Source: a virus (taxonomy: Duplodnaviria > Caudoviricetes). Taken from it: a stretch of 28,426 nt of DNA. The translations under genes were made by a program, and so were the position numbers. The notes below the pieces were generated by a model that was not told the origin of the DNA, ran no database searches, and was given only the letters and a program-made list of their open reading frames with translations. Location: positions 1 to 28,426 of the IMG/VR virus record IMGVR_UViG_3300020422_000002. One strand, given 5' to 3'. Shown piece by piece: positions 1 to 28,426 of this stretch (its first letter is position 1; each line of letters opens with the position of its first letter).

Positions 1-263
1 ACTTGTTGTCTATGCCTGATAAGAAAGTCATTTTCCATTTCCTGCCATTCTAAATTGGCTTTCTCAGTAATATGACCCATGATGACAGGCCATACCTTCG
101 TTAAATCGTCTGGCGGTAGCTGATTAGTCTTTTCTTTGTAGAGTTTAAAAACTTTTTCAGGATCGCCATCAGCTAAAATACAGATGTCTGTACCTGTAAC
201 TTTTAGCTTACGTTCAGCTAGGTTTTTCTCTGATAGCTGAAATTGTTTAAAGTATTCTTTCAT
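1..263 (-). CDS. YqaJ-like (lambda exonuclease family) recombination nuclease, 5' part; runs off the window
   Basis: Not in ORF track. ATG at 263 with GAGGAG SD. Translation MKEYFKQFQLSEKNLAERKLKVTGTDICILADGDPEKVFKLYKEKTNQLPPDDLTKVWPVIMGHITEKANLEW fits the YqaJ N-terminal pattern R..I/VGGSD...L(W/Y).EKT...DL...MG...E. Confidence 0.75.
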   Translation of the reverse strand, partial: MKEYFKQFQLSEKNLAERKLKVTGTDICILADGDPEKVFKLYKEKTNQLPPDDLTKVWPVIMGHITEKANLEWQEMENDFLIRHRQQ

Positions 264-390
264 ACAATCTCCTCAATAATTTTCACCAGATTATACTACA
301 AGGCATAATTAATCAAATTTTTTTTCAGTTGATTAAATTTTATTTTTCATATTAATATATGCCTTAAACGAATAAAGGGGATAAATTTAC
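264..390. promoter_or_regulatory. Divergent early control region with inverted repeats
   Basis: AT-rich spacer between divergent genes; AAGGCATA...TATGCCTT and TTAATCAA...TTGATTAA inverted pairs; leftward TATAAT at 290-295. Confidence 0.55.
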
Positions 391-594
391 ATGAAATTAA
401 GTGCATATATGGTTGAAAAAGGCATCAGGCAGGTCGAATTAGCACGACTGTTGGGTGTAAATCAATCATCGGTTAATAAGTGGCTCTATCAAAAAGGTTT
501 GCCTTCTGGTAAGCATATGATAGAGATTTATAAATGGTCAAATGGTCAAGTTGCATTAGAGGATTGGATACATGGGAAAAGCATCAAGGGATAA
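391..594 (+). CDS. Cro-like / XRE helix-turn-helix regulator
   Basis: 67 aa, RQVELARLLGVNQSSVNKW HTH pattern; first gene of the rightward operon. Confidence 0.85.
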   Translation: MKLSAYMVEKGIRQVELARLLGVNQSSVNKWLYQKGLPSGKHMIEIYKWSNGQVALEDWIHGKSIKG

Positions 595-886
595 AGGTTA
601 CAGGACTGAAAATAACCTGAGAAAACAGGCCTTACTTCATGATGATATTGAGTGTTACCGAGTACCATTAAGTGGTGCTACAGATGTTATGAAGGGCGAT
701 TTAATCCTGAATAAAACAGGCGGTGAGAAGTGGCACATTGAAGTTAAATGCAGGGCAAGTGGTTTTAAGGAAATATACAAGTGGATTGATGGCCATGATG
801 CATTGATTATCAAGTCAGACAACAATAAGGCTTTAATGGTCATGGATTACGATGATGCCTTAGAACTTATTGCAGGGCGAAGTTAA
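572..886 (+). CDS. Holliday junction resolvase, Hjc-type PD-(D/E)xK nuclease
   Basis: MGKASRDKG..E, RVPLSGA, GDL and IEVK motifs. Confidence 0.8.
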   Translation: MGKASRDKGYRTENNLRKQALLHDDIECYRVPLSGATDVMKGDLILNKTGGEKWHIEVKCRASGFKEIYKWIDGHDALIIKSDNNKALMVMDYDDALELIAGRS

Positions 887-1755
887 TGAGTTTAAGGGCG
901 GTAGCATGGTGTATCGAGTTGTCTTTACCCAGTCCTATGGAATGGCAAATATTACTTAGGATTTGCAATCATTATAATGACGTATCCAAATTCGCTTATC
1001 CATCTCAGGATAGGCTTGGTAAACAATGCCAGATCAGAAGGGAAAATGTAAACAGGCACATTCAAAGTCTGGCTTCCCAAGGATTAATTGAGATAATTAA
1101 AGAGCCAAATAAGGTAAATAAATATCGACTGCCAATGCTCGAGAAGTATGTGTCGCAAACGTCACTCCCAAAAATGGATGTGACGATAACGTCACACGAA
1201 GATATAATATATAATATATCAGATGATATTACTTTATCTACTAATACATCTAATAACTATAAAGTAGATAAAGGCGATACCGCCTACTTAAATCCAAGAG
1301 ATAAATTATGGAAATTATATTTACCTTGGTTTGAAAAACAAAAAACATCAATTAGAAATTCAAGACCATTTTTATCCAAGCTAATTAATGTAGCTAGTAA
1401 TGATAGAAAAGATAACATGGATGATGCCTGTGAGGAATTATGTCAGGTATTTAAACATTGTACTGAGAATGAAAAATATAATCTCTCAGAATATTTGATG
1501 GCTAGTGCGAAGTCGATTGCTAAGAAAAGTAGGCCAACAAAAGAATTATCTCAGCAGGGCAAAGACATGATTGAAGACTGGATTGATAGGATTTACAAGA
1601 AAAGCAAGACTGATAACAGATTAATTGGTGAGGACTGGGATAAGATCAGGGAAGCATTTAGAGATGCTATGAGGAATGGAACAACTGAAATTTATACTGT
1701 AGATGGCAAACCATTGACAACCAGAGGCTTACAAGAGTATTTTTTAATAAAATGA
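886..1755 (+). CDS. Replication initiator with N-terminal winged HTH (lambda O-like position)
   Basis: AYPSQDRLGKQCQIRRENVNRHIQSLASQGLI is an HTH_36-type motif; low-complexity linker carries iteron-like repeats. Confidence 0.75.
   Translation: MSLRAVAWCIELSLPSPMEWQILLRICNHYNDVSKFAYPSQDRLGKQCQIRRENVNRHIQSLASQGLIEIIKEPNKVNKYRLPMLEKYVSQTSLPKMDVTITSHEDIIYNISDDITLSTNTSNNYKVDKGDTAYLNPRDKLWKLYLPWFEKQKTSIRNSRPFLSKLINVASNDRKDNMDDACEELCQVFKHCTENEKYNLSEYLMASAKSIAKKSRPTKELSQQGKDMIEDWIDRIYKKSKTDNRLIGEDWDKIREAFRDAMRNGTTEIYTVDGKPLTTRGLQEYFLIK
1148..1260. repeat. Putative origin: two 18-bp iteron-like repeats plus AT-rich tract
   Basis: ATGTGTCGCAAACGTCAC (1148-1165) and ATGTGACGATAACGTCAC (1178-1195), followed by GATATAATATATAATATATC. 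Confidence 0.55.
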
Positions 1756-1943
1756 TTTATGATAATGGACTTACACCAGAACAACAAAAGCAGGTCGATA
1801 AGGCCTACGAAGAACTTATGCAGGAATTAAAGAAGGTAAACAGAATTAAATATGACCAGATGATGAAGGAAGTTGAGGCAATAAACTCTGGCAAAGAAGT
1901 TATAAAAATTAAGGATGATAATCAATTTGATTTATTTGGATGA
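1752..1943 (+). CDS. Hypothetical protein
   Basis: Overlaps both neighbours by 4 nt; ends QFDLF, resembling a sliding-clamp-binding motif (weak). Confidence 0.65.
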   Translation: MIYDNGLTPEQQKQVDKAYEELMQELKKVNRIKYDQMMKEVEAINSGKEVIKIKDDNQFDLFG

Positions 1944-2443: not shown

Positions 2444-2672
2444 AACCATCTTCTCCAATTCTAGTTTGCTGATGCCTAGACTTGATAGCTACATCAACTT
2501 TAGCCATTTGAACACGATGAGAGTTCATTTCTCTTTTTAGTTTTCTAAGTTTTTTTAGATCTGGATTATCCTTCTTGGCTTCAAGATTGTGATGTACTTC
2601 AGAACATTCATGGTTCAGTAAATGCCACCTGCGAACAATCATGAGTTCCTCATAATCAAGTAGCTTTTTCAT
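2424..2672 (-). CDS. Hypothetical basic coiled-coil protein (82 aa)
   Basis: ATG at 2672 (MKKLLDYEEL) overlaps the stop of the upstream 27-aa ORF (ATGA); preferred to the ORF-track start at 2708. Confidence 0.6.
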   Translation of the reverse strand: MKKLLDYEELMIVRRWHLLNHECSEVHHNLEAKKDNPDLKKLRKLKREMNSHRVQMAKVDVAIKSRHQQTRIGEDGFRILNS

Positions 2673-2752: not shown

Positions 2753-2781
2753 AACATCTCCTCTAATTATGTCTTGAAGGA

Positions 2782-2810: not shown

Positions 2811-2820
2811 GAAAATTAAT

Positions 2821-3605: not shown

Positions 3606-3965
3606 TCAATTGAGTTGTTCTAAATAAACTCTTTTGAGTTGTTTACTTTTTTGATGAAAGTAAAATCCGCCTTTGACTATTTCTGGATCTTCATCAATAT
3701 CGTAATTGTCTTCGAGATAATCGATTGATGCTCTGTTTTCCAGATCATCTAGAAACAGTTTAAATATGTCTAGGTCGATTAAGGTTGTTGGCTTGATTTT
3801 ATTTTTCAGAAAGTCATCAAGGAATTGAATGTATCTTTGTTTTTGATCTTCATTTTCAAAGTTACCTTCAACTGGATCTTCTTGGGTACAAGTCTTGAAG
3901 TTGTAAACTTCATCTTTTGTATATTTTGTTTTTATAAATTTAATTGTGAATGGTATTTTTTTCAT
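3606..3965 (-). CDS. Hypothetical acidic protein (119 aa), inserted between terS and terL
   Basis: ATG at 3965 (MKKIPFTIKF) with GAGGAG SD and extended -10 TGTTATAAT upstream; preferred to start 4037. Confidence 0.7.
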   Translation of the reverse strand: MKKIPFTIKFIKTKYTKDEVYNFKTCTQEDPVEGNFENEDQKQRYIQFLDDFLKNKIKPTTLIDLDIFKLFLDDLENRASIDYLEDNYDIDEDPEIVKGGFYFHQKSKQLKRVYLEQLN

Positions 3966-4029
3966 ATTTTTCTCCTCAATAAAATTTATTATAACAAACA
4001 AATGTGTCAAAATTATGGCAACATATTTG

Positions 4030-4042
4030 TAAGTCATTGATT
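4030..4042 (-). promoter_or_regulatory. IHF consensus site 2
   Basis: Minus strand AATCAATGACTTA matches WATCAANNNNTTR. Confidence 0.5.
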
Positions 4043-4128: not shown

Positions 4129-5520
4129 TTGGATAAAGCAACTGAAACATTATTGAAATTAAGAAACGATCCAGTTTTATTTGTAGAGAAGGTATTGAAT
4201 GCTACCCCCCAGAAGTGGCAGAAAAAGGCATTAAGAGGCATACAAAAAAATGATAAAGTTGCAATCAGGTCTGGTCATGGTGTTGGCAAGACAGCCTTCC
4301 AGTCATGGTTGATTTTATGGTGGATGCTTACTCATTATCCTTGCAAAATTGCAATTACTGGAAATACTCAGCACCAGTTGCAGGATGTTTTGTGGACTGA
4401 ATTGGATAAGTGGTACAGGCAGTTGCCTGATGGATTTAAAAGCCAGTTAGACATTAAGTCGGATAAGATTGCCTTACATGGTGCAAAAGACAGTTATGCG
4501 GTATGCAGAGTATCCAGAAAAGAAAATCCAGAAAGCCTTCAGGGCTTTCATAGCGAAAATATGCTTTTTATTTGTGAAGAGGCCTCTGGTATTCCTGATA
4601 TTATATTTCAGGTTGCGGAAGGTAGTTTATCTACCGAGGGGGCAAAGGTTGTTATGTGTGGTAACCCTACGAGGTCTGATGGATATTTTTATGAGGCCTT
4701 TCATAGCATGAGGCATCGTTGGTTTACGATGAAGGTTAGTTGTTTGGAAAGTGAATATGTATCCGAACAGTTTTTAGAGGACATGAAGTCTAAATATTCT
4801 GAAGAAAGTAATATTTGGAGGGTCAGGGTGGCAGGTGATTTTCCTGATCAGTCTGATGATGTTTTGTTACCTATGCATTTACTAGAGACAGCTATAACGA
4901 GGGATGTAGAGCCTTCACCGACAACACCTGTTGTTTGGGGTGTTGATGTAGCCAGATATGGATCTGACAGGTCAGCCTTGGCCAAAAGAAGGGGTCAGGA
5001 GTTATTAGAGCCGATTAAGACTTATTCTGGCAAAGACATTATGGAGATGGCAGGAATTATTTTATCTGAGTACGAGGCGGTAAGATATTCTGACAGGCCA
5101 GAGGCTATTTATATTGATGCAATTGGCATTGGTGCAGGATTGGCTGACAGGCTCAAAGAATTAGATCTTCCTGCGGTATCTGTGGCAGTTTCTGAATCAG
5201 CCAGTCTGAAGGATAAATTTGGAAGGTTAAGAGATGAATTATTTTGGAATGCTAGGGAATGGTTTGAGGGCAGGGATGTAAAGATACCTCAAGACGATGC
5301 CTTGATACAGGAGTTAACCAGTATTCGTTATAAATATTTATCGACAGGTAAGTTAAAGATTGAAAGTAAAGACGAGATGAAAAGGAGAGGCCAGAGGTCT
5401 CCAGACGTTGCAGATAGTTTTGTTTTAACATTTGCCGATCAGGGTGCATTGGCCTCTGGATCATATGGCAGGTGGAATAGTAGGAAGGTTTTCAGGCCTG
5501 ATACATCATGGATTATTTAA
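4129..5520 (+). CDS. terL: Terminase large subunit
   Basis: Walker A SGHGVGKT, Walker B LFICEEASG, GNPT coupling motif, nuclease GVDVARYGSD and SPDVADS; TTG start. Confidence 0.95.
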   Translation: MDKATETLLKLRNDPVLFVEKVLNATPQKWQKKALRGIQKNDKVAIRSGHGVGKTAFQSWLILWWMLTHYPCKIAITGNTQHQLQDVLWTELDKWYRQLPDGFKSQLDIKSDKIALHGAKDSYAVCRVSRKENPESLQGFHSENMLFICEEASGIPDIIFQVAEGSLSTEGAKVVMCGNPTRSDGYFYEAFHSMRHRWFTMKVSCLESEYVSEQFLEDMKSKYSEESNIWRVRVAGDFPDQSDDVLLPMHLLETAITRDVEPSPTTPVVWGVDVARYGSDRSALAKRRGQELLEPIKTYSGKDIMEMAGIILSEYEAVRYSDRPEAIYIDAIGIGAGLADRLKELDLPAVSVAVSESASLKDKFGRLRDELFWNAREWFEGRDVKIPQDDALIQELTSIRYKYLSTGKLKIESKDEMKRRGQRSPDVADSFVLTFADQGALASGSYGRWNSRKVFRPDTSWII

Positions 5521-5793
5521 ATGGCAAAAGATTATAGATTAGAAAAGGCAGGGGTATCTGGATACAATAAGCCGAAGAAAACACCAAATCATAAAACCAA
5601 GAGCCATATTGTGGTTGCAAAGGTTGGAGATAAAATTAAGACAATCAGGTTTGGTCAGCAGGGTGTAACAGGTGCAGGAAAAAACCCTAAAACGAAAAAA
5701 GATAAAATGAGGCGGAAGCAGTATTATGCTAGGCATGGTCAGACTTCCGATAAATTGTCAGCTAAATACTGGTCTCATAAGGTGAAGTGGTAA
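5521..5793 (+). CDS. Small basic conserved viral protein
   Basis: Lys-rich; K.IRFGQQG...RRK.YYARH...SAKYWS.KVKW pattern recurrent in marine viruses. Confidence 0.75.
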   Translation: MAKDYRLEKAGVSGYNKPKKTPNHKTKSHIVVAKVGDKIKTIRFGQQGVTGAGKNPKTKKDKMRRKQYYARHGQTSDKLSAKYWSHKVKW

Positions 5794-7151
5794 TGCAACA
5801 GAATAGTTTAATGTTTTATCAACCGAGTGATGCTTTACCGCCACCAAGGTTTAATTTTACTTTTTTGCCGATTTCAGCAAATAGATTTGGAAGTGATAAA
5901 AATGTTTCGTTGGGAGTTCCTCAATTTTTAGTTGATATGTACGATGCAACTATTGGAGCAACTGGCAAGGCTTTGTCTGGTGAATTAGGTGTGCCAAGTG
6001 TTGATAATCCTAAATTTACACAGGCAGGAAGAGACATGGCCTTAAACACAGCTTATGGCGGACTAATGTCATCGGTTTTACCAAAGACAATGCCAAAAGG
6101 TGCATTGGGTATGTCAGGAAGTAAGCCTCTTACGAAGGAACAAATTGATCCACTTGGTTATGGAAAAACTAAGGGATTACTTACTAAGCCTCTAGATGAG
6201 TTTGATATTGGCTATAAAAATTATGTTGATTTAGTTCCAAAAAAAGAAGTTAAAATTGAAGATTTGCAAGGTTCAGTCTTATTTCCACTTTTGGGCGATC
6301 AAAGTGCTACAGGCCTTTTATTAAAATCTATTGACGATATGAAATTTCAAAAACCAGTAAAGCTAGAGGGTGGAGTTGGTTTCATGAGAAGTGAGGCTCA
6401 GAAAAAAGAAGGAACTGCTTGGGCATCTGGTAAGGGTGTTATATCAGACATACACAATAGAGTTAAAAAAGTTGCTAATGAAACTGGTTTACCTGTAAAA
6501 ATGGTTTATACTGCTATGGGAAAAGATGCTGTAGATTTTGCAACTTTTCCTGCATCTGCTTTAGCAGAGCAAATACCTTTCAAAAAAATATTGAAAAAAG
6601 ATATGGCTAGTTTTAACAAAAAAATGAAACAGGCTATCAATATTAAGGGTGATCAACACAATGCGGTAAAAGATTTTGTAGGTGTAGAAAGTCCATTGCT
6701 AAGAACTTATTTGGAAATTGCACCACCAAATGTAAGGAAAAAATTTGTAAAATTGATGGATACAGCAGAGTTTCAAAATGCAGATTTTCCAAGTGTAGCT
6801 TTGACCAGATTTGCTGTTACTGATGATGCATTGAAAAAAGCTGTAACTGGAGATGCAGGTTTGGGTATAGCAAAACCAAATTTAAATAAATTGCCGACTG
6901 ATAAGCCGATTGTGCCACATTCAACATATCCTACACAAATTTATGGGGATTATTTTGGTGGTCTTCCTCAGTCTATACCAAAAACAATTTTATTTAGAGA
7001 TTTTTTTGATAAGTATAAAGGTGCAACAACTTCAACAGGTAAACCCATGTCACCATCCATGATTGATTATAGTTTTAGATTGAATTTGCCAACACAAAAA
7101 GTTGATCAACAACTTGTTGATGAAGTTAATAAATATTTATTAAATAGATAA
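5793..7151 (+). CDS. Hypothetical protein (about 452 aa), possible virion-packaged effector
   Basis: Long ORF; ATG at 5793 in TAATG overlap; Gly-rich N-terminal ~110 aa then a globular-looking region. Confidence 0.8.
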   Translation: MQQNSLMFYQPSDALPPPRFNFTFLPISANRFGSDKNVSLGVPQFLVDMYDATIGATGKALSGELGVPSVDNPKFTQAGRDMALNTAYGGLMSSVLPKTMPKGALGMSGSKPLTKEQIDPLGYGKTKGLLTKPLDEFDIGYKNYVDLVPKKEVKIEDLQGSVLFPLLGDQSATGLLLKSIDDMKFQKPVKLEGGVGFMRSEAQKKEGTAWASGKGVISDIHNRVKKVANETGLPVKMVYTAMGKDAVDFATFPASALAEQIPFKKILKKDMASFNKKMKQAINIKGDQHNAVKDFVGVESPLLRTYLEIAPPNVRKKFVKLMDTAEFQNADFPSVALTRFAVTDDALKKAVTGDAGLGIAKPNLNKLPTDKPIVPHSTYPTQIYGDYFGGLPQSIPKTILFRDFFDKYKGATTSTGKPMSPSMIDYSFRLNLPTQKVDQQLVDEVNKYLLNR

Positions 7152-7308: not shown

Positions 7309-7362
7309 AATCTCCTCAATGGAGAATTTTACAAAATTTTGAAAAAAAACACAAGGAAATTA

Positions 7363-7743
7363 ATGTTAAAGGTCAAAACAAAACTTGGTTGGGATGAGGT
7401 CAAAGGTATTACAGTTATAGCTGACGAAGATATCAGAAAAGGTAGTTGCATTACTTACTTTGATCCAGATTATGACTTGGTTTTTGAAAAGACATATATT
7501 GAAAATATGCCAGAGGCACAAAAACAATATGTAAAAAACATGACATATGAATACGAATTTGGTATTGATTATAAATATGTTTTACCATTTGGACATGAGC
7601 CTTATATGAACCACGATAGTAAACCTAATGTCGATGAGTATGGCAGGGCATTACAGAATATCAAATCTGGTGATGAATTAACCTGTGATTATGTGTTAAT
7701 GGATAGTAGATGTGTGTTGGGATCTGAGCCTTGGCTAACTTAA
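7363..7743 (+). CDS. SET-domain protein (putative lysine methyltransferase)
   Basis: G..VIADEDIRKG, YMNHDSKPN and ALQNIKSGDELTCDY match the SET motifs NHS..PN and I..GEEL..DY; ATG at 7363 with AAGGA SD. Confidence 0.88.
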   Translation: MLKVKTKLGWDEVKGITVIADEDIRKGSCITYFDPDYDLVFEKTYIENMPEAQKQYVKNMTYEYEFGIDYKYVLPFGHEPYMNHDSKPNVDEYGRALQNIKSGDELTCDYVLMDSRCVLGSEPWLT

Positions 7744-8390
7744 TTTGTAATTTACCTGCGGTGCAGGTCTGGGTTAGAAGAGAATATTTAAGAGATCATG
7801 AAGATGGTCATGGTGAGTTTGTAAAAGGGGTTTGGGTATCAGCTAAGTCATTAGCAGGTAGAGCCTTTTACTTTGAAACTTACTTGCCTGAGTATGGGGC
7901 ATTGTTTGATAAGCTACCAATATCAGCTTTTCTGAGTTCTCCAAAAACTCCAGATCCTGATTTGGATTTACCCAACTTACAGTTTTGGAATTGCATGGAT
8001 TATGGTGTTGTCTGTATTCATAAGCAGTTTATTGGCTCTATGGATTACGAAGTATTCACCAGAAATCATGGTGTAATGAAAGGTTACTATATTGCAACCT
8101 TAGATAACTATCATGACAATTCTGATGAAGTCGACTGGTCTACAAGTGAACAGCCATCGGAGCATAAAAGTCATAATTTAATTGAACTGGAAAATGGTCA
8201 GTATGGCCTGTATCCAAATAATAGAATGAGGGTATACGATAATTCTTTAACACCGCAAGAACCAAAAATGCCAGACTTTAAAGTTTCGACTGAATATTAT
8301 CAGGTTGAAAATGGTAACGATTGGGGTAGACTAGGTGATACTGATGAATATTTCTGGCAAACACCAGAAGAAAAAAAGAAGAAAAAATAA
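7731..8390 (+). CDS. Conserved marine-phage hypothetical protein
   Basis: 219 aa; VWVRREYL, DKLPISAF, QFWNC, EHKSHN and YPNNR motifs familiar from marine phages; function unknown. Confidence 0.8.
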   Translation: MANLICNLPAVQVWVRREYLRDHEDGHGEFVKGVWVSAKSLAGRAFYFETYLPEYGALFDKLPISAFLSSPKTPDPDLDLPNLQFWNCMDYGVVCIHKQFIGSMDYEVFTRNHGVMKGYYIATLDNYHDNSDEVDWSTSEQPSEHKSHNLIELENGQYGLYPNNRMRVYDNSLTPQEPKMPDFKVSTEYYQVENGNDWGRLGDTDEYFWQTPEEKKKKK

Positions 8391-9070: not shown

Positions 9071-11104
9071 ATGCCAAAAATGGATGATAATGAATTAGGA
9101 TCTGTCATTAGGTCTGAAATTCAACAGGCACAAAACTATTTTGAGACAGAATTTGCTGATGCAAGAATGAAAGCCATTGATTATTACCTTGGTGAACCAT
9201 TGGGTAATGAAAGAGATGGATTTAGTTCAGTCGTAAGTCATGATTTTGCAGATGTAGTTGAAACATTAATGCCTTCATTGATGAGGATATTTACATCCTC
9301 GGATAAATACGTCAGATATGCCCCTAGAACCGCAGAGGATGCCCAGAGAGCCGAACAATTAACTGATTATGTTAATTACATCATAAATCAAGATAACGAT
9401 GGCTACAGGGTCATTCATACGTTTATTAAAGATAGTTTGTTATTTAAGCTAGGTGTAATAAAATTTGGTTGGGATGAAAGCTATGAGGTTGAAGAGGCTG
9501 AATATAATGACATTACCGATGAAGAATTAGTTACCTTACTGGCAAACCCAGATATTGAGGTTGTATCTCAAAAAGAAAACACACAGACAATTATAGCTAA
9601 TGATGGTGAAGAGACCGAAGTCACAGCTAGTTATAATATGAAAGTGAGAATCAGAAAAAAGTCAGGAAGGGTAAAGTTAGAAAACGTACCACCAGAAGAA
9701 TTTATTTTTAACAAGAATGCAAAAAGTTTAGAGGACTGTTACTTCATATGTCATAGAACTCAAATGACTGTATCTGAGTTAGTAAGCATGGGATACGATC
9801 AGGAGTTGGTAGAGCAATATGCAGGGGATGTATATGGCGGTCAAGAAAGAGAAGAAAAGCAAAGAAGGTTTGAAGACATTGAGGGCGGTACTTACAGAGA
9901 TCCAGAAGATGACAGCCAGAAGGATGTAATTGTAAACCAGATAACAATGAAAGTTGATTTTGATGGTGATGGAATTGCAGAACTAAGACAGATACTAGCT
10001 ATCGGTGATAGTGGTGACGTAATACTTGAGAATGACGTATGTGACTACATTCCATTTGCTGTAGTATCTCCAATACTTATGCCTCATCGATTGGTTGGCC
10101 GATCTATATTTGATGCGACCGAAGACTTGCAGACAATTAAAACCACTTTAATGAGACAATATCTGGATAGTACCTATCACTCAGTATTACCAAGATTGAT
10201 AGTTCAAGAAGGCCAGACAAATCTGGATGACGTACTTGATGGCACAGCAGGTGGTATTATCAGGGTTAGAAATGCAGGTGCTGTACAGCCTCTACAGGCA
10301 CAGGGTGTAGGTAGAGAAATACAGCCATTGATGCAGTATCTTGATGAAGTAAAAGCCGACAGGACTGGTGTATCAAGACAAACACAGGGTTTAGATCCAT
10401 CTGTGTTGCAGTCAACTACAGCTTCTGCTGTACAGGCTACAGTAAAGGGATCTCAACAAAAAGTTGAAAGTTATGCCAGAACAATTGCCGAGACAGGCAT
10501 GAAAGACTTGTTCAGAGGCATACTTCACATAATTACAAATTATCAACAACAGCCAAGAATTGTCAGACTTAGAAATAAGTTTGTGCCTGTTGATCCGCAA
10601 GAAGGTTCAAGCGGTTTTGATATAATTGTAAATGTAGGGTTAGGAACAGCTAATGATGAACAAAAAGTCTCTATTCTCCAAGGCATTGCAAGTAAGCAAG
10701 AAGTTATTCTGCAAACTCTGGGAGTTGATAATCCGATTTGTAACTTGGCTCAGTATGCTAATACGCTTCGACAAATGGTGGATGTTCTTGGTTTCAAAGA
10801 TGCCGACCAGTTTTTCAAACCGCCACAAGTCGTACAAGCAGAAATTGCCCAAAGACAGCAAGGCCAACAACAACCAAATCCAGAAATCGAAAAAATCCAA
10901 GCGGAAATCGAAGCCGAAAAAATCAAACTCGAATCCAAAATAGAACTGGATAGATTAAAGTTACAGGCAGAGATAGAGTTGAAGAAAGAAAAGGCTATGG
11001 CTGAACTTGATATAAGAAGACAGGAGATGGCTCTTGAAGCAGAACTCAGAGTTGCAAAAGCAGTCACAGACAGCGACATCTCAACAAATTTACCAAGAAA
11101 CTAG
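9071..11104 (+). CDS. Portal protein (P22-like, with C-terminal coiled-coil barrel)
   Basis: 677 aa; S.VVS.D....VE...PSL.RIF, VPPEEF and DFDGDGIAE motifs; Gln/Glu-rich helical C-terminus. Confidence 0.92.
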   Translation: MPKMDDNELGSVIRSEIQQAQNYFETEFADARMKAIDYYLGEPLGNERDGFSSVVSHDFADVVETLMPSLMRIFTSSDKYVRYAPRTAEDAQRAEQLTDYVNYIINQDNDGYRVIHTFIKDSLLFKLGVIKFGWDESYEVEEAEYNDITDEELVTLLANPDIEVVSQKENTQTIIANDGEETEVTASYNMKVRIRKKSGRVKLENVPPEEFIFNKNAKSLEDCYFICHRTQMTVSELVSMGYDQELVEQYAGDVYGGQEREEKQRRFEDIEGGTYRDPEDDSQKDVIVNQITMKVDFDGDGIAELRQILAIGDSGDVILENDVCDYIPFAVVSPILMPHRLVGRSIFDATEDLQTIKTTLMRQYLDSTYHSVLPRLIVQEGQTNLDDVLDGTAGGIIRVRNAGAVQPLQAQGVGREIQPLMQYLDEVKADRTGVSRQTQGLDPSVLQSTTASAVQATVKGSQQKVESYARTIAETGMKDLFRGILHIITNYQQQPRIVRLRNKFVPVDPQEGSSGFDIIVNVGLGTANDEQKVSILQGIASKQEVILQTLGVDNPICNLAQYANTLRQMVDVLGFKDADQFFKPPQVVQAEIAQRQQGQQQPNPEIEKIQAEIEAEKIKLESKIELDRLKLQAEIELKKEKAMAELDIRRQEMALEAELRVAKAVTDSDISTNLPRN

Positions 11105-11495
11105 AAACCATTTTGGTGACGTATTAAGTCTATTAGTAGCTTCCCAATTCCATCATCATTGGAAGCTACACCAAGTCAAGAGGGTGTTTAATCCTCCACT
11201 ATATCATGGACAGTTCAGAATTTGGTATAGTAACTCTCATCCTCTTGGCTTTTGTTGTTGGGCATGGGTAAGCGATAAAATTTTAGATCAGTTGCTGACA
11301 GGTCAATATAAGATACAGCCAGATGATTGGAAGTCAGGTAATAATTTATGGTTGGCCGAGTTTGTTGCACCATATGGACAAACTGGATATATGGTCAGAA
11401 ACATGAGACATTTTATTAAAAAAACATATGGCAAAGATATAAAAGGATTTTGGTATAGGTCAGCAAAGAAGAAAGTTGGCTATGCAAAAAGTTAG
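11034..11495 (+). CDS. RTX toxin-activating lysine acyltransferase (HlyC/CyaC, TAAT family)
   Basis: G.VL.L...SQFH..W, PPL..GQF, P.GFCCWA.VS, DW.SG..LW...FVAPYG and terminal R reproduce the HlyC layout; TTG start with AGGAG SD inside the portal 3' end. Confidence 0.88.
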   Translation: MKQNSELQKQSQTATSQQIYQETRNHFGDVLSLLVASQFHHHWKLHQVKRVFNPPLYHGQFRIWYSNSHPLGFCCWAWVSDKILDQLLTGQYKIQPDDWKSGNNLWLAEFVAPYGQTGYMVRNMRHFIKKTYGKDIKGFWYRSAKKKVGYAKS

Positions 11496-13651: not shown

Positions 13652-14605
13652 ATGGCACAATTTACCACAGCTAATGCGGTAGGTGAAAGAGAAGATCTCT
13701 CCGATATTATTTATCGGCTTGACACTACAGAGACACCTTTTTTCTCTACAGCAAAGAAGACTACTGTAAAATCAACACTAACTGAATGGCAAGTTCAGGA
13801 GTTGGCTACAGCAGATCAAAATTCAGTCAACGAGGGTGCTGACGCGAGTTTCGCCACACCTACACCGACTGTAAGATTAACTAACAATACTCAAATCTCA
13901 GTCAAAGACTTCCAGATCTCTGGAACATTAGAGGCTGTTGATAAGGCAGGTAGAGACAGAGAAACCGCTTATCAGAAAGTCCTAAAAGGTCTTGAGTTAA
14001 GAAGAGATGTTGAGAAGATTGTTACTGATCTTAACGTAGCAAAGTCTGGATCAGATCCTAGAAAATCAGCTACATTTGTAACATTTATTACAAATGGTGA
14101 TGCTTCACCATCAGACATTTCTTTTGGAACTGGAGATGGAGCAAACAGTTGTGATTTAACTGGAACTGAACAACCGCTTACTTTAGCGAAGATTGACAAT
14201 GCTATGCAACAGGCATGGGATTCTGGGGGTAACCCAAGAATGTTACTTTGTTCTTCAACAAACAAAGCCAACATCTCAGACTTATCACAGGCAGGTACAA
14301 ATCTTGTAACAAACCAAGTTAATACATCAGCAAATACTGCTCCATCATTTATTGGTGCGGTAAGTGTTATGATGAATGACTTTGGTACACTAGACCTTAC
14401 AATGAGTAGGTTTATGTCAAACGATAAGCTTCATATTATTGATCCTGATCATATTATGATTGGTAATCTTGATGGAAGAAATTTCATTGAGACAGAGTTA
14501 GCCAAAACTGGTGATAGCTTTAAGCACCAAATTATATATGAGTGGACATATATGCCGACAGCACCGAAGGCTCATGCCTCTGTGATCGGTCTTAATGGAT
14601 CATAA
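13652..14605 (+). CDS. Major capsid protein (DUF5309/SU10-like)
   Basis: REDLSD.I......ETPF, EWQ...L, N.TQI, EL.RD.E and LAKTGD motifs; AAGGAG SD. Confidence 0.92.
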   Translation: MAQFTTANAVGEREDLSDIIYRLDTTETPFFSTAKKTTVKSTLTEWQVQELATADQNSVNEGADASFATPTPTVRLTNNTQISVKDFQISGTLEAVDKAGRDRETAYQKVLKGLELRRDVEKIVTDLNVAKSGSDPRKSATFVTFITNGDASPSDISFGTGDGANSCDLTGTEQPLTLAKIDNAMQQAWDSGGNPRMLLCSSTNKANISDLSQAGTNLVTNQVNTSANTAPSFIGAVSVMMNDFGTLDLTMSRFMSNDKLHIIDPDHIMIGNLDGRNFIETELAKTGDSFKHQIIYEWTYMPTAPKAHASVIGLNGS

Positions 14606-15631: not shown

Positions 15632-16018
15632 ATGTCAGCAATGAGTGATTATTTAGAACTAAAGTTTCTAGACCATTTTACAGGCACAGCATCAACATCT
15701 GCCCCATCAGCAGTATATATTGGGTTATCTACTGCTAGTTTAGCAGATGATAATTCTGGTACTGAATTGACTGGAAACAATTATGCAAGAAAAGCTATTA
15801 CCTTTGGTTCAGCATCAAGTGGATCTATTACAAACAACAATAATGTAGAATTTAATAGTGCTACAGGAAATTGGGGTGTGGTGTCCCACTTTGGAATCTT
15901 TGATGCCTCTTCATCAGGTAACTTATTGTTTCATGGTGCATTTACAGCATCAAAAACAATTCAAACTGGAGATATTTTAAAAGTAGCTAGTGGATCTTTA
16001 ACTATTACAGCTACCTAA
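15632..16018 (+). CDS. Small virion structural protein
   Basis: MS.YLE...L, Y.R..I.F, F..ATG.WG...HFG.FDA...GN.L pattern. Confidence 0.75.
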   Translation: MSAMSDYLELKFLDHFTGTASTSAPSAVYIGLSTASLADDNSGTELTGNNYARKAITFGSASSGSITNNNNVEFNSATGNWGVVSHFGIFDASSSGNLLFHGAFTASKTIQTGDILKVASGSLTITAT

Positions 16019-16030: not shown

Positions 16031-17917
16031 ATGGCTTTAGGTGTTCCTCGCTTAGACCAGTTAATAACTCAGCTTGATAGTATAAGTGGTAAATTCGATA
16101 GTGATGACGATTTAAATAAACTTGAGTTTACCAAACCTAATTTAGAACAACTACATTTATGGGGTGACATTGAGCAGGGTTTAACTCTGACCGATACCTT
16201 TAATGCTGATGTAAATATTGTTAATAGTAATTTTTCTAGAAGTCAACCAGTTGTATTTGCTTGTGAGGTTGTGTTTCCAGAAACAGTAGATACAGCTTGT
16301 ACTTTGTTTGAAATGGGTGGTGCAGGTCATGGTGTCACAATTGGTTTTCATGATACTGACACATTTAGATTAGCTTTTGGTAGAGGTAATAATGATACGC
16401 CTACCAATGACAAAACTATCATTGATGTATCAAAAACTGCTTTACCATTAGATGGCGATTTGCACACATTAGTTTGGGAAATGAACCCAACTAATGGTAC
16501 TGGATCAATTTATGTAGACAATCAACTTGTAGCGACAGGCACAAATTCAGGTTGGAATAATTCAATTTGGGCAGGAACTGATTCAGGTGGATTTATCAGT
16601 CAACTTAATCAGACAACACCTGCTTATCAATTTATAAGAGCAAATGAGCCAAACGTAAGATGGGCATATGGGTTTGCAGGTAATCTTAGACACTATCAAA
16701 ATCAATCTGTAAATACAAATAAGTTAGGATTAGATGCTTTAGATTCTCTAGGAAACTTAGATAGTTTTGATACATTTTTTGTTCGGCAAGGTACAGTAAG
16801 TGTTACTGTATCAGCTAGTGTTACATCAGGTGCTGAAGTTGTTGAGGGTGTTGTTGCTGATGTTGATACTTCAGCTTCAATATCATCTGGATCAGTAAGA
16901 ATAAGAACTGTTAGTAGCAGTATTTCTACAAGTGCAACTGTTTCTTCTGGCTCAGTTAGAATTAGGACTGTAGCAAGTTCTATATCTGTTTCAGCTTCTG
17001 CTTCTGCATTTAGTGTAAGAATACAATCTGCTAGTGCAAATATTTCTACAACAGCCACTATTTTAAGTAACTGTGTAGGCATTTTCTCAGCAGGAAGTTC
17101 AATTGCAACAAATGCAACAGTTTCTTCTTCGGCTATCAGAATAAGAACTATTGCAAGTACAATAGTATCAACTGGTACTATATCTGCATCTGCAACTGCT
17201 ACATTAAATTTTGAAACAAATATATCTTGTTCAGCTACAGTATCTGCTTCACCAGTAAGCATTTTAGCTTCTAGTGGATCAATAAATACGACTGCAAGTA
17301 TTTCAAGCACATCTGTATTAATCAGGCAGTTTGATGGATCTGTTGCTACATCTGCAAGTATTTCAAGCAGTTATACTGTTACATTTTTAGTTGGTAGTTC
17401 TGTATCAACAAGTGCAACTGCTTCGGCCAGTTCAGTAAGAATTAGAACAATAGCAGGTACAGTTGTTTCGGCAGGAAATGTAAGTGCATCTGCAACTGCA
17501 ACACTCAACTTTGAGACAAGTATTTCATGCTCTGCTTCAGTATCTGGATCAGCCACAAGAGAACTAGCATTTAGTGGTTCGATAAGTACATCGGCAAATG
17601 TTGCAGGATCTGGAATAAGAATACAACAGGCTGAAGGAGCAATTGCAACATTAGCAAATATTACAGCAACAGCAGGGCAAATATTTGGTGTATCAGGTTC
17701 TGTAGATACAATTGTTACAATTGAAGCTACATATTACTTTACTGTAAATGTTACATCCTCTGTAGACACTACAGCAAGTGTAAGTTCTACAATTAAGATA
17801 ATTGGGGATGATTGGTCTATAATACCTAAAGGTAATGAAACATGGACAAATGTAACTGTTGGATCTGAAGTTTGGTCAACACAAAATACGTCAAATGAGG
17901 TTTGGACAATACAATGA
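16031..17917 (+). CDS. Fibre/spike-like virion protein with LamG-like insert and 20-aa Ser/Ala/Thr repeats
   Basis: DGDLHTLV...IYVDNQLV LamG-like segment; repeats like SATVSSGSVRIRTVASSISV; C-terminal W-x9-W repeats. Confidence 0.75.
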   Translation: MALGVPRLDQLITQLDSISGKFDSDDDLNKLEFTKPNLEQLHLWGDIEQGLTLTDTFNADVNIVNSNFSRSQPVVFACEVVFPETVDTACTLFEMGGAGHGVTIGFHDTDTFRLAFGRGNNDTPTNDKTIIDVSKTALPLDGDLHTLVWEMNPTNGTGSIYVDNQLVATGTNSGWNNSIWAGTDSGGFISQLNQTTPAYQFIRANEPNVRWAYGFAGNLRHYQNQSVNTNKLGLDALDSLGNLDSFDTFFVRQGTVSVTVSASVTSGAEVVEGVVADVDTSASISSGSVRIRTVSSSISTSATVSSGSVRIRTVASSISVSASASAFSVRIQSASANISTTATILSNCVGIFSAGSSIATNATVSSSAIRIRTIASTIVSTGTISASATATLNFETNISCSATVSASPVSILASSGSINTTASISSTSVLIRQFDGSVATSASISSSYTVTFLVGSSVSTSATASASSVRIRTIAGTVVSAGNVSASATATLNFETSISCSASVSGSATRELAFSGSISTSANVAGSGIRIQQAEGAIATLANITATAGQIFGVSGSVDTIVTIEATYYFTVNVTSSVDTTASVSSTIKIIGDDWSIIPKGNETWTNVTVGSEVWSTQNTSNEVWTIQ

Positions 17918-20767: not shown

Positions 20768-21891
20768 TGAGACCAATTGATTATTTATTAGGAAATATAA
20801 ATCCAAATACAGGACTTCCAATTAATGCTTTAGTGAAAGATCAAAACTTTCCTAGACCTGTCAAAATAGATGCAATGCCTTCTTTGTTAGGTGCAGATAA
20901 TTCATTAATATCACCAATGTATAATCAAAATATACAATCCAGAGATGGGTCAGCTATACCTGTAAGACAAATGACAAATGTTGGAAGTTTACCACAGGAT
21001 AGAAGAACACCTTCGCTTTTAACACCAAATGTAGGTGCGATAAATCAAGACAGCACAGCAACTGGTTTGTTAGGTACTTCTTTCAGAGATCCAAGAACAG
21101 TAGGTGCATTAAATGCTTCATCTGAGTTATTAAAACTAGGTGGTGCATCGGTTGGTAAACCTGCTCCAACATTAGGTCAGGGTTTAGGTTTTGCTACACA
21201 GGCTTATTTAAAAGGTATGCAAGGGCAAGAAGATAGAATTGCTAAACAACAGATGGCAGGTCTTAAATCGCAACTTGATCTGGCTAACTACATGAATAAA
21301 GTTCAAGAAATGCAGTTGGGTATCCAAAAATCTAAAAAAGATGATCTAAAAACTAAGTTTACTCAGGAAAAAGATTTAAGAAAAGAATTTACTGCTATAG
21401 CAAAACCTTTTAGAGAGACCATAACTAACTTTAATAAAGCCTTTGCATTTGCAAGTAAGAAAAACCCAACTGGTGCATCTGATATTGCTCTTGTATTTGC
21501 ATACATGAAAGCATTAGATCCAAGATCAGTCGTAAGAGAAAACGAACAAGCAGATGTTCAAAATGCAGGTGGTACTCCTGCTTATGTAAGAAATGCTTGG
21601 AATAAAATATCAACTGGTCAAAGATTTGATCCACAAGTTAGAAAAGATATATTAGATGCTTCAAAATCTCTTGTATTAGGTCAAATACAAACTCAGAGAG
21701 ATTTAGAAAATGAGTATAAAAAATATGCTGAAAATAACAATTTAAATGTAGATAATGTTTTTACATCTCTTTTACCAAAAGTTGGAACATTTTTAAATCC
21801 ATTACCTGTAGCCACAATGGAAGAGGCAGAAGGAAAATTGAAAGATGGGCAATATTTTACAATTAATGGACAAATTGGAGTTATTGATTAA
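20767..21891 (+). CDS. DNA ejection / internal virion protein 2
   Basis: DIALVFAYMKALDP.SVVRE.E motif; synteny. Confidence 0.75.
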   Translation: MRPIDYLLGNINPNTGLPINALVKDQNFPRPVKIDAMPSLLGADNSLISPMYNQNIQSRDGSAIPVRQMTNVGSLPQDRRTPSLLTPNVGAINQDSTATGLLGTSFRDPRTVGALNASSELLKLGGASVGKPAPTLGQGLGFATQAYLKGMQGQEDRIAKQQMAGLKSQLDLANYMNKVQEMQLGIQKSKKDDLKTKFTQEKDLRKEFTAIAKPFRETITNFNKAFAFASKKNPTGASDIALVFAYMKALDPRSVVRENEQADVQNAGGTPAYVRNAWNKISTGQRFDPQVRKDILDASKSLVLGQIQTQRDLENEYKKYAENNNLNVDNVFTSLLPKVGTFLNPLPVATMEEAEGKLKDGQYFTINGQIGVID

Positions 21892-23441
21892 TGGGCAAAG
21901 CAAGATTATTAGATCAAAATACAAATACACAAACACAAAATAATAATACAGTTGGTTTGGCCGAAGGTATTACTCAGTCAGCTTTACAAGGATTGACTTT
22001 TGGTACTGCTGATGAAATACAAGGGTTCGCTAAAGGATTATATTCTAAGTTTGTAGAGGGTAAAGATTTTAACACAGCCTATAACGAGACAGTAAGTGAT
22101 ATTAGATCTGACTTAAAATCTTTTAGAGAGCAAGAGCCATTATATGCATATGGATCAGAAATTGTTGGTAGTTTACCTACAGCAATATTAGGTGGTGCAG
22201 GACTTGCCAGAGCAGGTGTTGGTGCTGTTAAAGGTGCAGGAGCAATGGGTGCATTATATGGAGCAGGTGCTACAGATAGTGGTGATCCAGTAGACAGAGC
22301 CATTGGCGGAACTATTGGTGGACTTACTGGTGGAACATTACAAAAGGTTGCACCATATGCTACAGAAGGTGCTAAAAAACTTATTAAAAGAGGAGTGTCA
22401 CCAACTGTTGGACAGGCTGTAGGTGGTGGTTTAAAAACAATGGAGGAAGCATTAACTTCTGTGCCATTTGTTGGTTCGGCTGTTTCAGGTGCTATGCAAA
22501 GATCAAAACAACAATTTGATAAAGCAATATTTCAAGAAGTATTAGCACCAATGAAGCCTCTTGGTGTTAATGCAAAAGAAATTTTAAAAGGTGTTGAAGG
22601 TAGGAATTTGTATGCAAAAACAGCAGATATTATTTCAAACCAGTACGACAAAATTTTGCCTAAATTAAAAATGCCATCAAGAAATGTATTACAATCCAGA
22701 TTTGATGATGCAATTTTGAATGAAGCAGAATCACTATCTGGCAATGCACAAAAAACATTTTTAGAAAAAATTGACAGAATTATTTACTCAAAATTTGATG
22801 ATGCAGGTAATATATCAGGTCAAAACTACAAACAGGCCATGTCACAGGTTAGAAGGGAAGTTAGAAAATTTAGTAAAAGTCCAGAGCCAATCAATCAAGA
22901 CATTGCTTCAAGTTTTAAAGTAATTGAACAAACTATGGCAGATGTATTAAAAAAGACAAACCCTGCACAAAAAGAGGCATTAGATGCCATTGACAAAAGT
23001 TTCAGAAGGTTGTTACCAGTTGAAAGGGCAGTCATTGGTTCAGAAAGTGGAGAGTTTACAGCAAATCAAATTCTTAGACAAATCAAGGGTGGCGATCAGA
23101 CTTTAAGAAAAAAATCTTTTGGTAGAGGTGAGGCAGAAATGCAACCTATTGCTGAAGCAGGACAAAAAGTTATAGGACAAAAATTACCTGATTCTGGTAC
23201 TGGTTTTAGGCAAATGCTTGGTGGTGCATTATTTGGTGGTGGTTTGATGATTGATCCATTAACAACTGCAATTGGAGCAGGATTAACTGTACCTGCATAC
23301 AGTCCACTTGGCACAAATTTAATTAGAAATATAACAACAAAAGGCATTGCTCCAGTAATAGGAAGAGGTTCACCTTTTTATGGAGGGTTGTTAGGTGGTA
23401 ATTACCAAGATGCAAACTTTTTAGGAATGAATAGGAGATAA
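21891..23441 (+). CDS. DNA ejection / internal virion protein 3
   Basis: QGLTFG.ADE motif and Gly/Ala-rich hydrophobic segments. Confidence 0.75.
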   Translation: MGKARLLDQNTNTQTQNNNTVGLAEGITQSALQGLTFGTADEIQGFAKGLYSKFVEGKDFNTAYNETVSDIRSDLKSFREQEPLYAYGSEIVGSLPTAILGGAGLARAGVGAVKGAGAMGALYGAGATDSGDPVDRAIGGTIGGLTGGTLQKVAPYATEGAKKLIKRGVSPTVGQAVGGGLKTMEEALTSVPFVGSAVSGAMQRSKQQFDKAIFQEVLAPMKPLGVNAKEILKGVEGRNLYAKTADIISNQYDKILPKLKMPSRNVLQSRFDDAILNEAESLSGNAQKTFLEKIDRIIYSKFDDAGNISGQNYKQAMSQVRREVRKFSKSPEPINQDIASSFKVIEQTMADVLKKTNPAQKEALDAIDKSFRRLLPVERAVIGSESGEFTANQILRQIKGGDQTLRKKSFGRGEAEMQPIAEAGQKVIGQKLPDSGTGFRQMLGGALFGGGLMIDPLTTAIGAGLTVPAYSPLGTNLIRNITTKGIAPVIGRGSPFYGGLLGGNYQDANFLGMNRR

Positions 23442-23442
23442 C

Positions 23443-26963: not shown

Positions 26964-26972
26964 GAGAAAAAA

Positions 26973-27530
26973 ATGCCTTGGAAACATAATAATATAGCAA
27001 TTAAAGCAGGTAAAGCATGGTCTGATAAAGATGGTGTTCAACACCCTGCAAACTGGATGATTTGGACTGATCCTGAGAAAAAAGATAAAGGTCTTACTTG
27101 GGAAGATGAGCCTGACACAAGTTTTGATAATCGTTTTTATACGTCAAAAAATGTTGAAAGAAAACTTGATGATGAAGATGCAAAAGATGCTGATGGCAAA
27201 CAGTTGTATGAACAAGATGGCAAAACAAAACTTATTTATGAGGGATTAAAAACAATATGGATAAGGCAAACAAAAGAAACAGCAAATTCACTCCTGAAGC
27301 AATCGGATTGGTATATTATCAGAGCAAGTGATGATTCAAGTTTAGCAGTACCTTCAGACATAACAGCAAAAAGAAAAGCAATAAGAGATGCTTGTAAAAC
27401 AATAGAGGATAAGATCAATGCTTGTAGTAGTCTTGCAGACTTCCAAGCCATGTTTGTTGTGCCGACTGATGATAGTAATCCACCAAACCCTATTGGGAAT
27501 GCTCCCATATATGACTGGCCTACAGAGTAA
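26973..27530 (+). CDS. Tail fibre assembly chaperone-like protein
   Basis: HPANW, LL..SDW...R, R.AIR and terminal WP; follows the fibre gene. Confidence 0.7.
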   Translation: MPWKHNNIAIKAGKAWSDKDGVQHPANWMIWTDPEKKDKGLTWEDEPDTSFDNRFYTSKNVERKLDDEDAKDADGKQLYEQDGKTKLIYEGLKTIWIRQTKETANSLLKQSDWYIIRASDDSSLAVPSDITAKRKAIRDACKTIEDKINACSSLADFQAMFVVPTDDSNPPNPIGNAPIYDWPTE

Positions 27531-27533
27531 AAA

Positions 27534-27761
27534 TTGGAAATATCGGTTGAAATATTATGGTCGGCCATAATCACATTAATTATCATGCCAATGGCTTGGG
27601 TTTTTACCTATTTGGTGAAGGAGGTTAAAAGACAGCAAATTCTGTTAAACCGCACAAGAGAGGATTATGCAAAAAAAAGTGAAGTTAAGTCAGACATAGA
27701 AACTGTAATGGATGCCCTTCACAGACTAGAGGATAAATTAGATAAAGTTCTTTCTAAATAA
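27534..27761 (+). CDS. Small membrane protein (TM plus coiled coil), possible lysis accessory
   Basis: N-terminal TM, REDY and RLEDKLD motifs; TTG start. Confidence 0.65.
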   Translation: MEISVEILWSAIITLIIMPMAWVFTYLVKEVKRQQILLNRTREDYAKKSEVKSDIETVMDALHRLEDKLDKVLSK

Positions 27762-27771
27762 GGATACATAA

Positions 27772-28230
27772 ATGATAGACCCCATAAGTGCATTTGGAAT
27801 GCTTACATCTGCTCATGCAGGAATAAAAAAAATTATTTCTATGGGTAGAGATTTGAATAGTGCATCCAACTATATAAAAAAATATGCCACAGCCGAGGCA
27901 GAATTATCTTTTGGAAAAGAAAGAAAAAAAAAGAGATGGTTTGGCCTTGGTTCAGCTACTTCCGATGCATTAGACATTCATTTTAAAAAGGAAGAACAAA
28001 GAAAAATGCACGAAGAATTGAGGTCAATGTTCCTGCTTTATGGCTCTAGAGGCGAATGGGAGAGGCTACAGGCCACCATTGCACAGGTTAGGGCAGAACG
28101 TAAGAAAGAGTTAGAAGAGATAGCCAGACAAAGAGATTTGGTGATAAAAGTGTCAGTAGGTGTAGGCCTAGCTATTATAGGCGGTATAGCTATTTATTAC
28201 TGGGCATTATATTTGAAAGGTAGTTTATGA
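27772..28230 (+). CDS. Hypothetical membrane-anchored protein
   Basis: MIDPISA start, coiled coil, C-terminal TM. Confidence 0.75.
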   Translation: MIDPISAFGMLTSAHAGIKKIISMGRDLNSASNYIKKYATAEAELSFGKERKKKRWFGLGSATSDALDIHFKKEEQRKMHEELRSMFLLYGSRGEWERLQATIAQVRAERKKELEEIARQRDLVIKVSVGVGLAIIGGIAIYYWALYLKGSL

Positions 28231-28426
28231 GTAATTTAATTGCACAACTGAAGAGACACGAATCTTTAGAACTAAAACCTTATAAATGTACTTCTGGTAA
28301 ACTTACTATTGGAGTAGGTAGGAACTTAGAAGACATAGGAATTACAGAACAAGAGGCCGAATTACTGCTTTTAAACGACATAGGCAGGGTAAAACAGGAA
28401 CTTGTGAATGATCAATGGTACATGGA
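28227..28426 (+). CDS. GH24 (T4-type) lysozyme, partial
   Basis: Not in ORF track. MSNLIAQLKRHESLELKPYKCTSGKLTIGVGRNL shows E-x8-(D/C)-x5-T spacing and TIG.GRNL. Confidence 0.9.
   Translation, partial: MSNLIAQLKRHESLELKPYKCTSGKLTIGVGRNLEDIGITEQEAELLLLNDIGRVKQELVNDQWYM

Follow-up and report, generated by a model that had tools for sequence, protein, structure and literature searches.

Genome content and missing dipeptides

The window analyzed here is the whole of a 28,426-base virus record (IMGVR_UViG_3300020422_000002; Duplodnaviria, Caudoviricetes) from a marine podophage, with a GC content of 36.2% and a CheckV completeness of 82%. Its head and tail module comprises a terminase, SU10-type portal, capsid, adaptor, ejection proteins, tail fibre and lysin, and a repressor, a resolvase and a replication initiator are encoded as well. 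A search of sequencing runs found the stretch in marine metagenomes from several studies, although seven of the rows may be the source itself. The nearest named phage is C72C1 (OQ984150; 71.5% identity in the terminase, 53% in the capsid), and a near-complete relative of 35,562 bases (G001) is 81-97% identical to the window over most aligned blocks. Our subject is the complete lack of three dipeptides, Ala-Ala, Pro-Gly and Gly-Pro, from the proteins of this phage and of a set of short words from its DNA.

Across the 39 called open reading frames (ORFs; 9,175 amino acids), Ala-Ala, Pro-Gly and Gly-Pro are each found 0 times compared with 53.0, 24.8 and 24.8 expected, which bears out the original prediction that real ORFs lack them. 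They are the only zero dipeptides of 400 and are also missing from all six raw frames, while gapped controls are normal (A.A 61, P.G 22, G.P 31). The most enriched dipeptides are Ser-Ala and Ala-Ser (91 and 81, each against 57 expected). Both peptides quoted in the original prediction, a Gly/Ala-rich stretch and SASASAF, are present (Table 1).

On the DNA level, GCNGC, CCNGG, GGNCC, GCGC and CCGG are absent from all 28,426 bases, where a dinucleotide Markov model predicts 38, 38, 39, 14 and 14 copies. We take these to be the sites of Fnu4HI/Bsp6I, ScrFI, Sau96I, HhaI and HpaII, respectively. Eight further words that the original prediction had overlooked, ACGG, CCCG, CASTG, CCAGC, GAGCT, GGNNCC, GCNNGC and GDGCHC, are likewise at zero with 28-49 copies expected for each; GGNNCC, GCNNGC, CASTG and GDGCHC presumably correspond to NlaIV, Cac8I, TspRI and Bsp1286I. 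Several missing 6-mer palindromes (e.g. GAATTC, 0 of 10 expected, and CTGCAG, 0 of 6) and a reduction of GANTC (18 vs 88) had been overlooked too. By the elimination criterion given in the accessible text of PMC6286503 (observed/expected below 0.1, expectation of at least 15), eleven words, all at zero with expectations of 28-49, count as eliminated; the expectations for GCGC and CCGG lie just below that mark. GGCC (40 copies), GATC (113) and AGCT (75) are common, as originally claimed, with AGCT never occurring as GAGCT or AGCTC. Longer words with a gap or in two parts (2+2, 2+3 and 3+3, with gaps up to 9-10) added nothing clear to the short ones except TTCN3GAA (0 vs 9.5) and CCTN5AGG (0 vs 5). 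GGAGG/CCTCC (6 vs 35) and AGGAG (19 vs 52) are scarce in coding regions window-wide, and this deficit may mean that ribosome-binding sites inside genes, or the site of another enzyme, are avoided.

Selection acts on the DNA words

In 200 codon-order shuffles, GCNGC, CCNGG and GGNCC reached means of 60, 38 and 39 copies (minimum 40, 22 and 23), and in 200 synonymous shuffles that left the proteins fixed the means were still 8.7, 13.8 and 10.7 (minimum 2, 6 and 4), compared with 0 observed. Counts in this check, which had been proposed with the original prediction, are thus far from expectation, and the depletion holds after control for codon and amino-acid usage. Since even frames in which they are not obligate contain none of these words, the DNA words themselves are selected against, and dipeptide loss follows. 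With the 13 words forbidden, Ala-Ala, Pro-Gly and Gly-Pro are the only dipeptides left without a permitted codon pair because GCNGC, CCNGG and GGNCC are unavoidable when coding these pairs, as the original prediction had reasoned. Ala-Gly retains 3 of 16 codon pairs, GCA-GG(A/G/T), and no Ala-Gly in the genes of the window is encoded in any other way; Pro-Ala retains 4 of 16 and its count is halved (11 vs 24). Each dipeptide tracks its own DNA word across other phages: one locus (L090) has no CCNGG and no Pro-Gly (0 of 19 expected), yet 40 Ala-Ala where 43 are expected.

Alignment with homologues indicates what took the place of the lost pairs. At 254 positions with Ala-Ala in some outgroup homologue, the window most often carries Ala-Ser (18) or Ser-Ala (12), the exchange originally anticipated, followed by Ala-Val (9), Ala-Thr (7) and Ala-Glu (7). 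Individual replacements in structural proteins are listed in Table 1, where the outgroup loci are related and do not represent independent counts.

Table 1. Genes of the window and positions at which outgroup homologues carry one of the missing dipeptides
Feature	Position	Strand	Remarks
Terminase large subunit	4129..5520	+	phrog_2; marker for the motif-state tree
Ala-Lys in gene 5521-5793	5761..5766	+	Ala-Ala in 43/54 outgroup loci
SU10-type portal protein, 677 residues	9071..11104	+	PF23899; no Ala-Ala, Pro-Gly or Gly-Pro
Portal residues 402-403, Ala-Gly	10274..10279	+	Pro-Gly in 20/34 outgroup loci
Portal residues 551-552, Gly-Val	10721..10726	+	Gly-Pro in 17/29 outgroup loci
SU10-type major capsid protein	13652..14605	+	PF17236
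Capsid residues 52-53, Ala-Thr	13805-13810	+	Ala-Ala in 13/23 outgroup loci
gp80-like virion protein	15632..16018	+	PF23140
gp80-like residues 60-61 and 76-77, Ser-Ala	within 15632..16018		Ala-Ala in 10/13 and 11/13 outgroup loci
Ser/Ala-rich protein, 628 residues	16031..17917	+	virion module; no Ala-Ala
SASASAF in the Ser/Ala-rich protein	16991-17011
DNA-ejection protein	21891-23441	+
Gly/Ala-rich stretch in the ejection protein	22191-22274	+

Ongoing removal and lineage pattern

Fifteen close relatives were aligned to the window, yielding 893 distinct isolated substitutions, of which 864 are coding and 722 of these synonymous. Expected site gains were calculated with base change, codon position and synonymy all matched. 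None of the 864 coding substitutions creates a GCNGC, CCNGG or GGNCC site, compared with 11.8 expected (Poisson P ~8e-6). Gains are also missing for GGNNCC (0 vs 5.9), CASTG (0 vs 7.3), CCAGC (0 vs 5.5), CCGG (0 vs 6.4) and CCCG (0 vs 10.6), and GAGCT (1 vs 6.4) and GCGC (1 vs 4.5) behave similarly. ACGG (15 vs 17) and GCNNGC (4 vs 5.6) are relaxed in the relatives, and control words are gained freely (GGCC 11 vs 5.8, GATC 21 vs 8.4, TGNCA 14 vs 18.4). Outside the set of isolated substitutions some relatives do have stray sites, e.g. one CCNGG in G001 and two GCNGC, two CCNGG and one GGNCC in locus L007. The purge of the words is ongoing among these relatives.

Of the 33 capsid loci compared, 29 are at least 83% identical and jointly hold 5 GCNGC and 1 GGNCC; 26 of these carry at most two CCNGG and three (L017, L018 and L025) carry 22-33. 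A terminase tree of 70 rows was built by a quick IQ-TREE run with SH-aLRT (Shimodaira-Hasegawa-like approximate likelihood ratio test) support only, leaving out loci below 6 kb, matches below 400 residues and duplicate stretches. In a 15-row clade (SH-aLRT 99), GCNGC and GGNCC are absent throughout and CCNGG is absent from 14 rows. Among the other 55 rows GCNGC is lost in none, and losses of CCNGG and GGNCC are patchy. The wider word set differs even between close kin: CASTG, GGNNCC and GCNNGC are missing from the group of the window, whereas groups B and C tolerate them fully or partly, and in group D there is no GGCC or GGNNCC and hardly any GANTC. Such switching of whole words suggests that the enzyme pools of the hosts are shifting.

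Subclade C tolerates CCWGG and is nested among avoiders (L040) on the terminase tree, so that regain of CCWGG appears to be the simpler reading. In its member G002, CCWGG is found 37 times compared with 38 expected, distributed over the three frames as 7, 10 and 19 copies vs 24, 3.6 and 7. Only the first of these frames encodes Pro-Gly, which stays low in the three subclade C records counted (G002 7 vs 24, L018 2 vs 19, L119 6 vs 18; the records overlap one another, G002 and L018 at 97% identity). In CCWGG-tolerant pelagiphages, Pro-Gly is near expectation (21 vs 23 and 16 vs 16). Taken together, silent CCWGG copies seem to have come back while the Pro-Gly dipeptide lags behind. C72C1 was rejected as a neutral Pro-Gly control given that it avoids CCWGG itself. 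CCWGG in silent frames reaches about twice a constrained null (G002 29 vs ~13, L018 31 vs 11), and CACTG is found 58 times vs 33; the CCWGG excess was not taken as a sign of positive selection because CAGG, AGGC and CCTGC are enriched clade-wide.

Hosts and restriction systems

We compared the 5-mer profile of the window with those of eight cultured phages. Pelagiphages rank first (HTVC011P, rho 0.53; HTVC106P, 0.50; HTVC010P, 0.42), followed by the OM43 phage Venkman (0.41), the SAR116 phage HMO-2011 (0.37, first 50 kb) and dairy and staphylococcal phages (0.22-0.23). The proposed use of the depleted words as a host fingerprint thus works in outline, although it is coarse: Venkman follows closely, and the window keeps GGCC, unlike the pelagiphages. 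A simple SAR11 host is further at odds with a GC content 4 points higher, and capsid identity to HTVC106P is only 32%. Integrase homologues comprise 23 metagenomic sequences without host names and, in phages, only hits of about 25%. The terminase scan of genome contigs gave 18 loci with a single near one (82%), an 8-kb contig in the metagenome-assembled genome (MAG) G006, which contains no C5 methyltransferase and no 16S gene. Its RecA appears Marinisomatota-like, as far as we can judge, and G006 was set aside as a probable misbinning.

As a candidate host group we sampled an alphaproteobacterial family that we infer to be the Pelagibacteraceae; its genomes measure 0.6-1.6 Mb, and GC content was 25-31% at the loci examined. 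C5 methyltransferases above the cut-off were found in 51 of 301 genomes. The 57 neighbours of the 30 best methyltransferase loci include RE_Bsp6I three times, RE_Eco47II twice, RE_TdeIII and RE_NgoFVII_C once each, and five HNH nucleases, four of them beside tandem methyltransferases; PADLOC assigned three further neighbours to Type II nucleases, one of them weakly. The RE_Bsp6I, RE_Eco47II and RE_TdeIII families presumably recognize GCNGC and GGNCC. Tandem C5-methyltransferase pairs (L169, L182, L190-L194), several beside HNH nucleases, sit at different chromosomal sites in this family and are candidates for recognizing CCNGG or the asymmetric words. The accessible text on a sea-ice Pelagibacter MAG reports GANTC methylation only (PMC12570018), which is consistent with systems that are strain-specific or absent.

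In the phages themselves, the C5 methyltransferase family PF00145 was found in none of 10 related records (9 in the clade, only G001 complete) and the N6/N4 methyltransferase family PF01555 in none of 5 including the window (again only G001 complete). Protection by an own methyltransferase with context-dependent exemptions does not match the pattern, as all three words are at zero with no exempt context. G001 encodes a PAPS-reductase-like protein (L115 7958-8791; phrog_424; PADLOC SspD, E 2e-16) that could relate to DNA modification.

Explanations for the missing words

We consider it likely that many Type II restriction systems, each present in few host strains, drove the purge of the words through selection. 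The phage lineage has eliminated a dozen or more short words, which such restriction-modification systems probably cut. The enzymes would be pairs of a C5 methyltransferase and a nuclease, any one pair occurring in only a small fraction of the strains of a large host population, and the probable host would be a marine alphaproteobacterium of the streamlined kind, e.g. SAR11. Selection should be steepest for the last sites, as a single site would make the genome cleavable wherever a strain carries that enzyme; the cost of the first site would roughly equal the proportion of hosts that restrict, and in a population of very large size this may outweigh a change from Ala to Ser. Last-site selection of this kind would account for the finding that, in most cases, a word is either missing from a subclade or close to its expected number. 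Once an enzyme drops from the host pool, a quick return would be predicted for synonymous copies and a slow one for the dipeptide. The lasting pressure from several systems postulated by the original prediction is well backed where it concerns selection, given the zeros in non-obligate frames, the missing new sites and the replaced dipeptides. Its link to restriction enzymes is inferred, and no cognate host was found.

Several observations weigh against restriction as the cause. The asymmetric words ACGG, CCCG, CCAGC and GAGCT were matched to no enzyme known to us. GGCC and GATC are retained in the window; GGCC is absent from all three pelagiphages compared. An integrase search found no prophage in 301 genomes of the family and 401 of the class, and the single near terminase hit lies in the possibly misbinned G006. 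The CCNGG-type nucleases RE_LlaMI and EcoRII-C were found in none of 281 family genomes, with neither profile detected in controls. Each specificity seems to be present in about 1% of the sampled genomes, which makes the strength of selection a matter of argument. Further, G001 carries a tyrosine integrase (phrog_1, E 4e-39) in a region that lies outside the window, and site avoidance is usually weaker in temperate phages according to the accessible text of PMC8410138.

Three other processes could act on the words at the DNA level. Orphan methyltransferases of one host might mark them for cleavage by Type IV or other methyl-dependent nucleases of the next. Most of the absent words are GC-rich, as is typical of C5 methyltransferase sites, GATC is kept, and many C5 methyltransferases of the candidate family have no recognized nuclease neighbour. 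However, orthodox nuclease families adjoin 6 of the 30 loci examined, and the Type IV word SCNGS given in the accessible text of PMC6286503 does not fit, with GCAGG/CCTGC being enriched (81 vs 44.8); we regard methylation-directed restriction as unlikely. Erosion of the words by deamination of methylated cytosines would need no selection, and CG does show a mild deficit (321 copies, compared with 435 when synonymous codons are shuffled). Such decay cannot stop new sites from arising, and their absence among the relatives largely refutes it. It also predicts an excess of Val-Ala and Ala-Thr, which are found 45 times vs 42 and 59 times vs 49, whereas Ser-Ala and Ala-Ser are the pairs most enriched. 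Most differences at CCWGG either affect the outer C (14) or represent C>A changes (6), and three are C>T at the inner C, a weak test in which the direction is probably gain. We regard mutational decay as extremely improbable. A phage nuclease that degrades host DNA and whose sites were purged from the phage for self-protection could be sought among window genes of unknown function (5787-7151 and 3606-4037). PADLOC gave no match for the 7 window proteins tested, at least 13 distinct words change independently between subclades, and the same words are missing from the unrelated T7-like pelagiphage HTVC011P, making self-protection very unlikely.

Alternatively, the dipeptides themselves could be selected against at the protein or translational level, e.g. 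through ribosome stalling at Pro-Gly or Gly-Pro, the DNA pattern being a by-product. The low Pro-Gly counts of subclade C in spite of the return of CCWGG would agree with this. As a sole cause it is refuted by the absence of the words from other frames and strands; moreover, ten of the absent words force no dipeptide, and in HTVC106P Ala-Ala (76 vs 71) and Pro-Gly (21 vs 25) are normal but Gly-Pro is missing (0 vs 25) together with GGNCC (0). We give this possibility hardly any credence.

Relation to known site avoidance

Elimination of Type II sites in double-stranded DNA phages has been described by Rusinov et al. (2018) for 7.5% of phage-site cases in the accessible text (PMC6286503), where recognition-type words are likewise reduced to less than 10% of their expected number, whatever the strand or frame. 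According to the accessible part of PMC8410138, elimination mostly concerns orthodox Type II sites and lytic phages. The window differs in having at least 13 words at absolute zero and in belonging to a lineage with an integrase. GCNGC, absent here, is usually over-represented in phages according to PMC6286503, whose accessible text does not describe loss of whole dipeptides or contain the term 'amino acid'; that of PMC8410138 says no more than that nonsynonymous contributions to avoidance cannot be excluded. Our literature searches, which did not reach most subscription journals, turned up no report of entire dipeptides being lost through site avoidance, nor any paper on C72C1. The dipeptide loss is an extreme variant of known site avoidance and not a new mechanism.

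Nor is the effect peculiar to the window phage, as it is also seen in cultured ocean and dairy phages. The closest fingerprint among the eight cultured comparators is that of HTVC011P (NC_020482; L199), which also bears an integrase. Like the window it is depleted of GCNGC (3 vs 35), CCNGG (0 vs 25) and GGNCC (0 vs 25), lacks GCGC, CCGG, CCCG, GAGCT, GGNNCC, GCNNGC and GDGCHC altogether, and has few of the dipeptides (Ala-Ala 2 vs 54, Pro-Gly 0 vs 21, Gly-Pro 0 vs 21). Unlike the window, it belongs to the Autographiviridae, lacks GATC (0 vs 84) and GGCC (0 vs 28), and keeps CASTG and ACGG. GANTC is nearly gone as well (1 vs 99). HTVC011P encodes an ArdC-like anti-restriction protein, and the accessible part of its preprint (bioRxiv 10.1101/410191) mentions restriction for this protein and not site loss; no description of its dipeptide or word loss was found in the literature searches. 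In the Lactococcus phages c2 (Ala-Ala 1 vs 26, Pro-Gly 1 vs 12, Gly-Pro 4 vs 12) and sk1 (2 vs 33, 1 vs 10, 1 vs 10) the dipeptide loss is nearly as complete, although a few copies remain. Staphylococcus phage P68 lacks Gly-Pro (0 vs 8) and Venkman has almost no Pro-Gly or Gly-Pro (0 and 1, each vs 24), but the wider word sets of all four phages differ from that of the window. C72C1 and relatives with about 70% terminase identity share the genome layout, and many have no CCNGG, GGNCC or GDGCHC; in contrast to the window, most have a GC content of 43-56%, and GCNGC and Ala-Ala are present. GATC is absent from C72C1 (0 vs 118), as from HMO-2011 (0 vs 129).

Other features of the locus

Compared with the window, G001 additionally encodes an exonuclease, an Erf-like annealase and a holin besides the PAPS-reductase-like protein and integrase mentioned above. 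Between the portal and scaffold genes, the window carries an HlyC-family acyltransferase (11034-11495; PF02794, E 1e-28) with no RTX partner in the window. A SET-domain protein (7339-7743) adjoins a gene (7731-8390) that is about 75% identical to cyanomyophage genes labelled 'PurM/ferredoxin', and the forbidden words are absent there too. The slot after the terminase is variable: the window has a 454-residue protein (5787-7151) for which no family was found and the protein atlas returned unnamed clusters only (best score 0.88), and G001 has a different 740-residue protein (L116 14905-17127). In some relatives the major capsid gene is interrupted by a group I intron (L020 6279-6499, RF00028, 90.3 bits). 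Similarly long capsid matches exist in L019, L021, L022, L024, L029, L030 and L033, and the C72C1 capsid gene is split (L034 8530-9731); the major capsid gene of the window has no intron.

Implications

Site avoidance is usually treated as synonymous and nearly free, whereas here whole dipeptides are lost across the proteome and host defence limits protein sequence. What this work adds is the test for ongoing selection, the Pro-Gly lag and a cultured model: HTVC011P on HTCC1062 shows the same pattern, so that both cost and cause can be tested in culture. Counts of Ala-Ala, Pro-Gly and Gly-Pro provide a cheap screen of protein catalogues, and where subclades differ in their word sets a host shift is likely. 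Should the hosts form a SAR11-like pool, restriction systems that are rare and strain-specific would rank among the main selective pressures on phages of very high abundance. It is conceivable, and we put it forward only tentatively, that rare Type II systems scattered over strains act jointly as a population-level immunity that rewrites capsid, portal and tail proteins and leaves a Pro-Gly scar outlasting the pressure itself. If this is true, the phages affected would include integrase-bearing ones of streamlined marine bacteria such as SAR11, and missing dipeptides would record the past hosts of a phage in a form readable from protein sequence alone.

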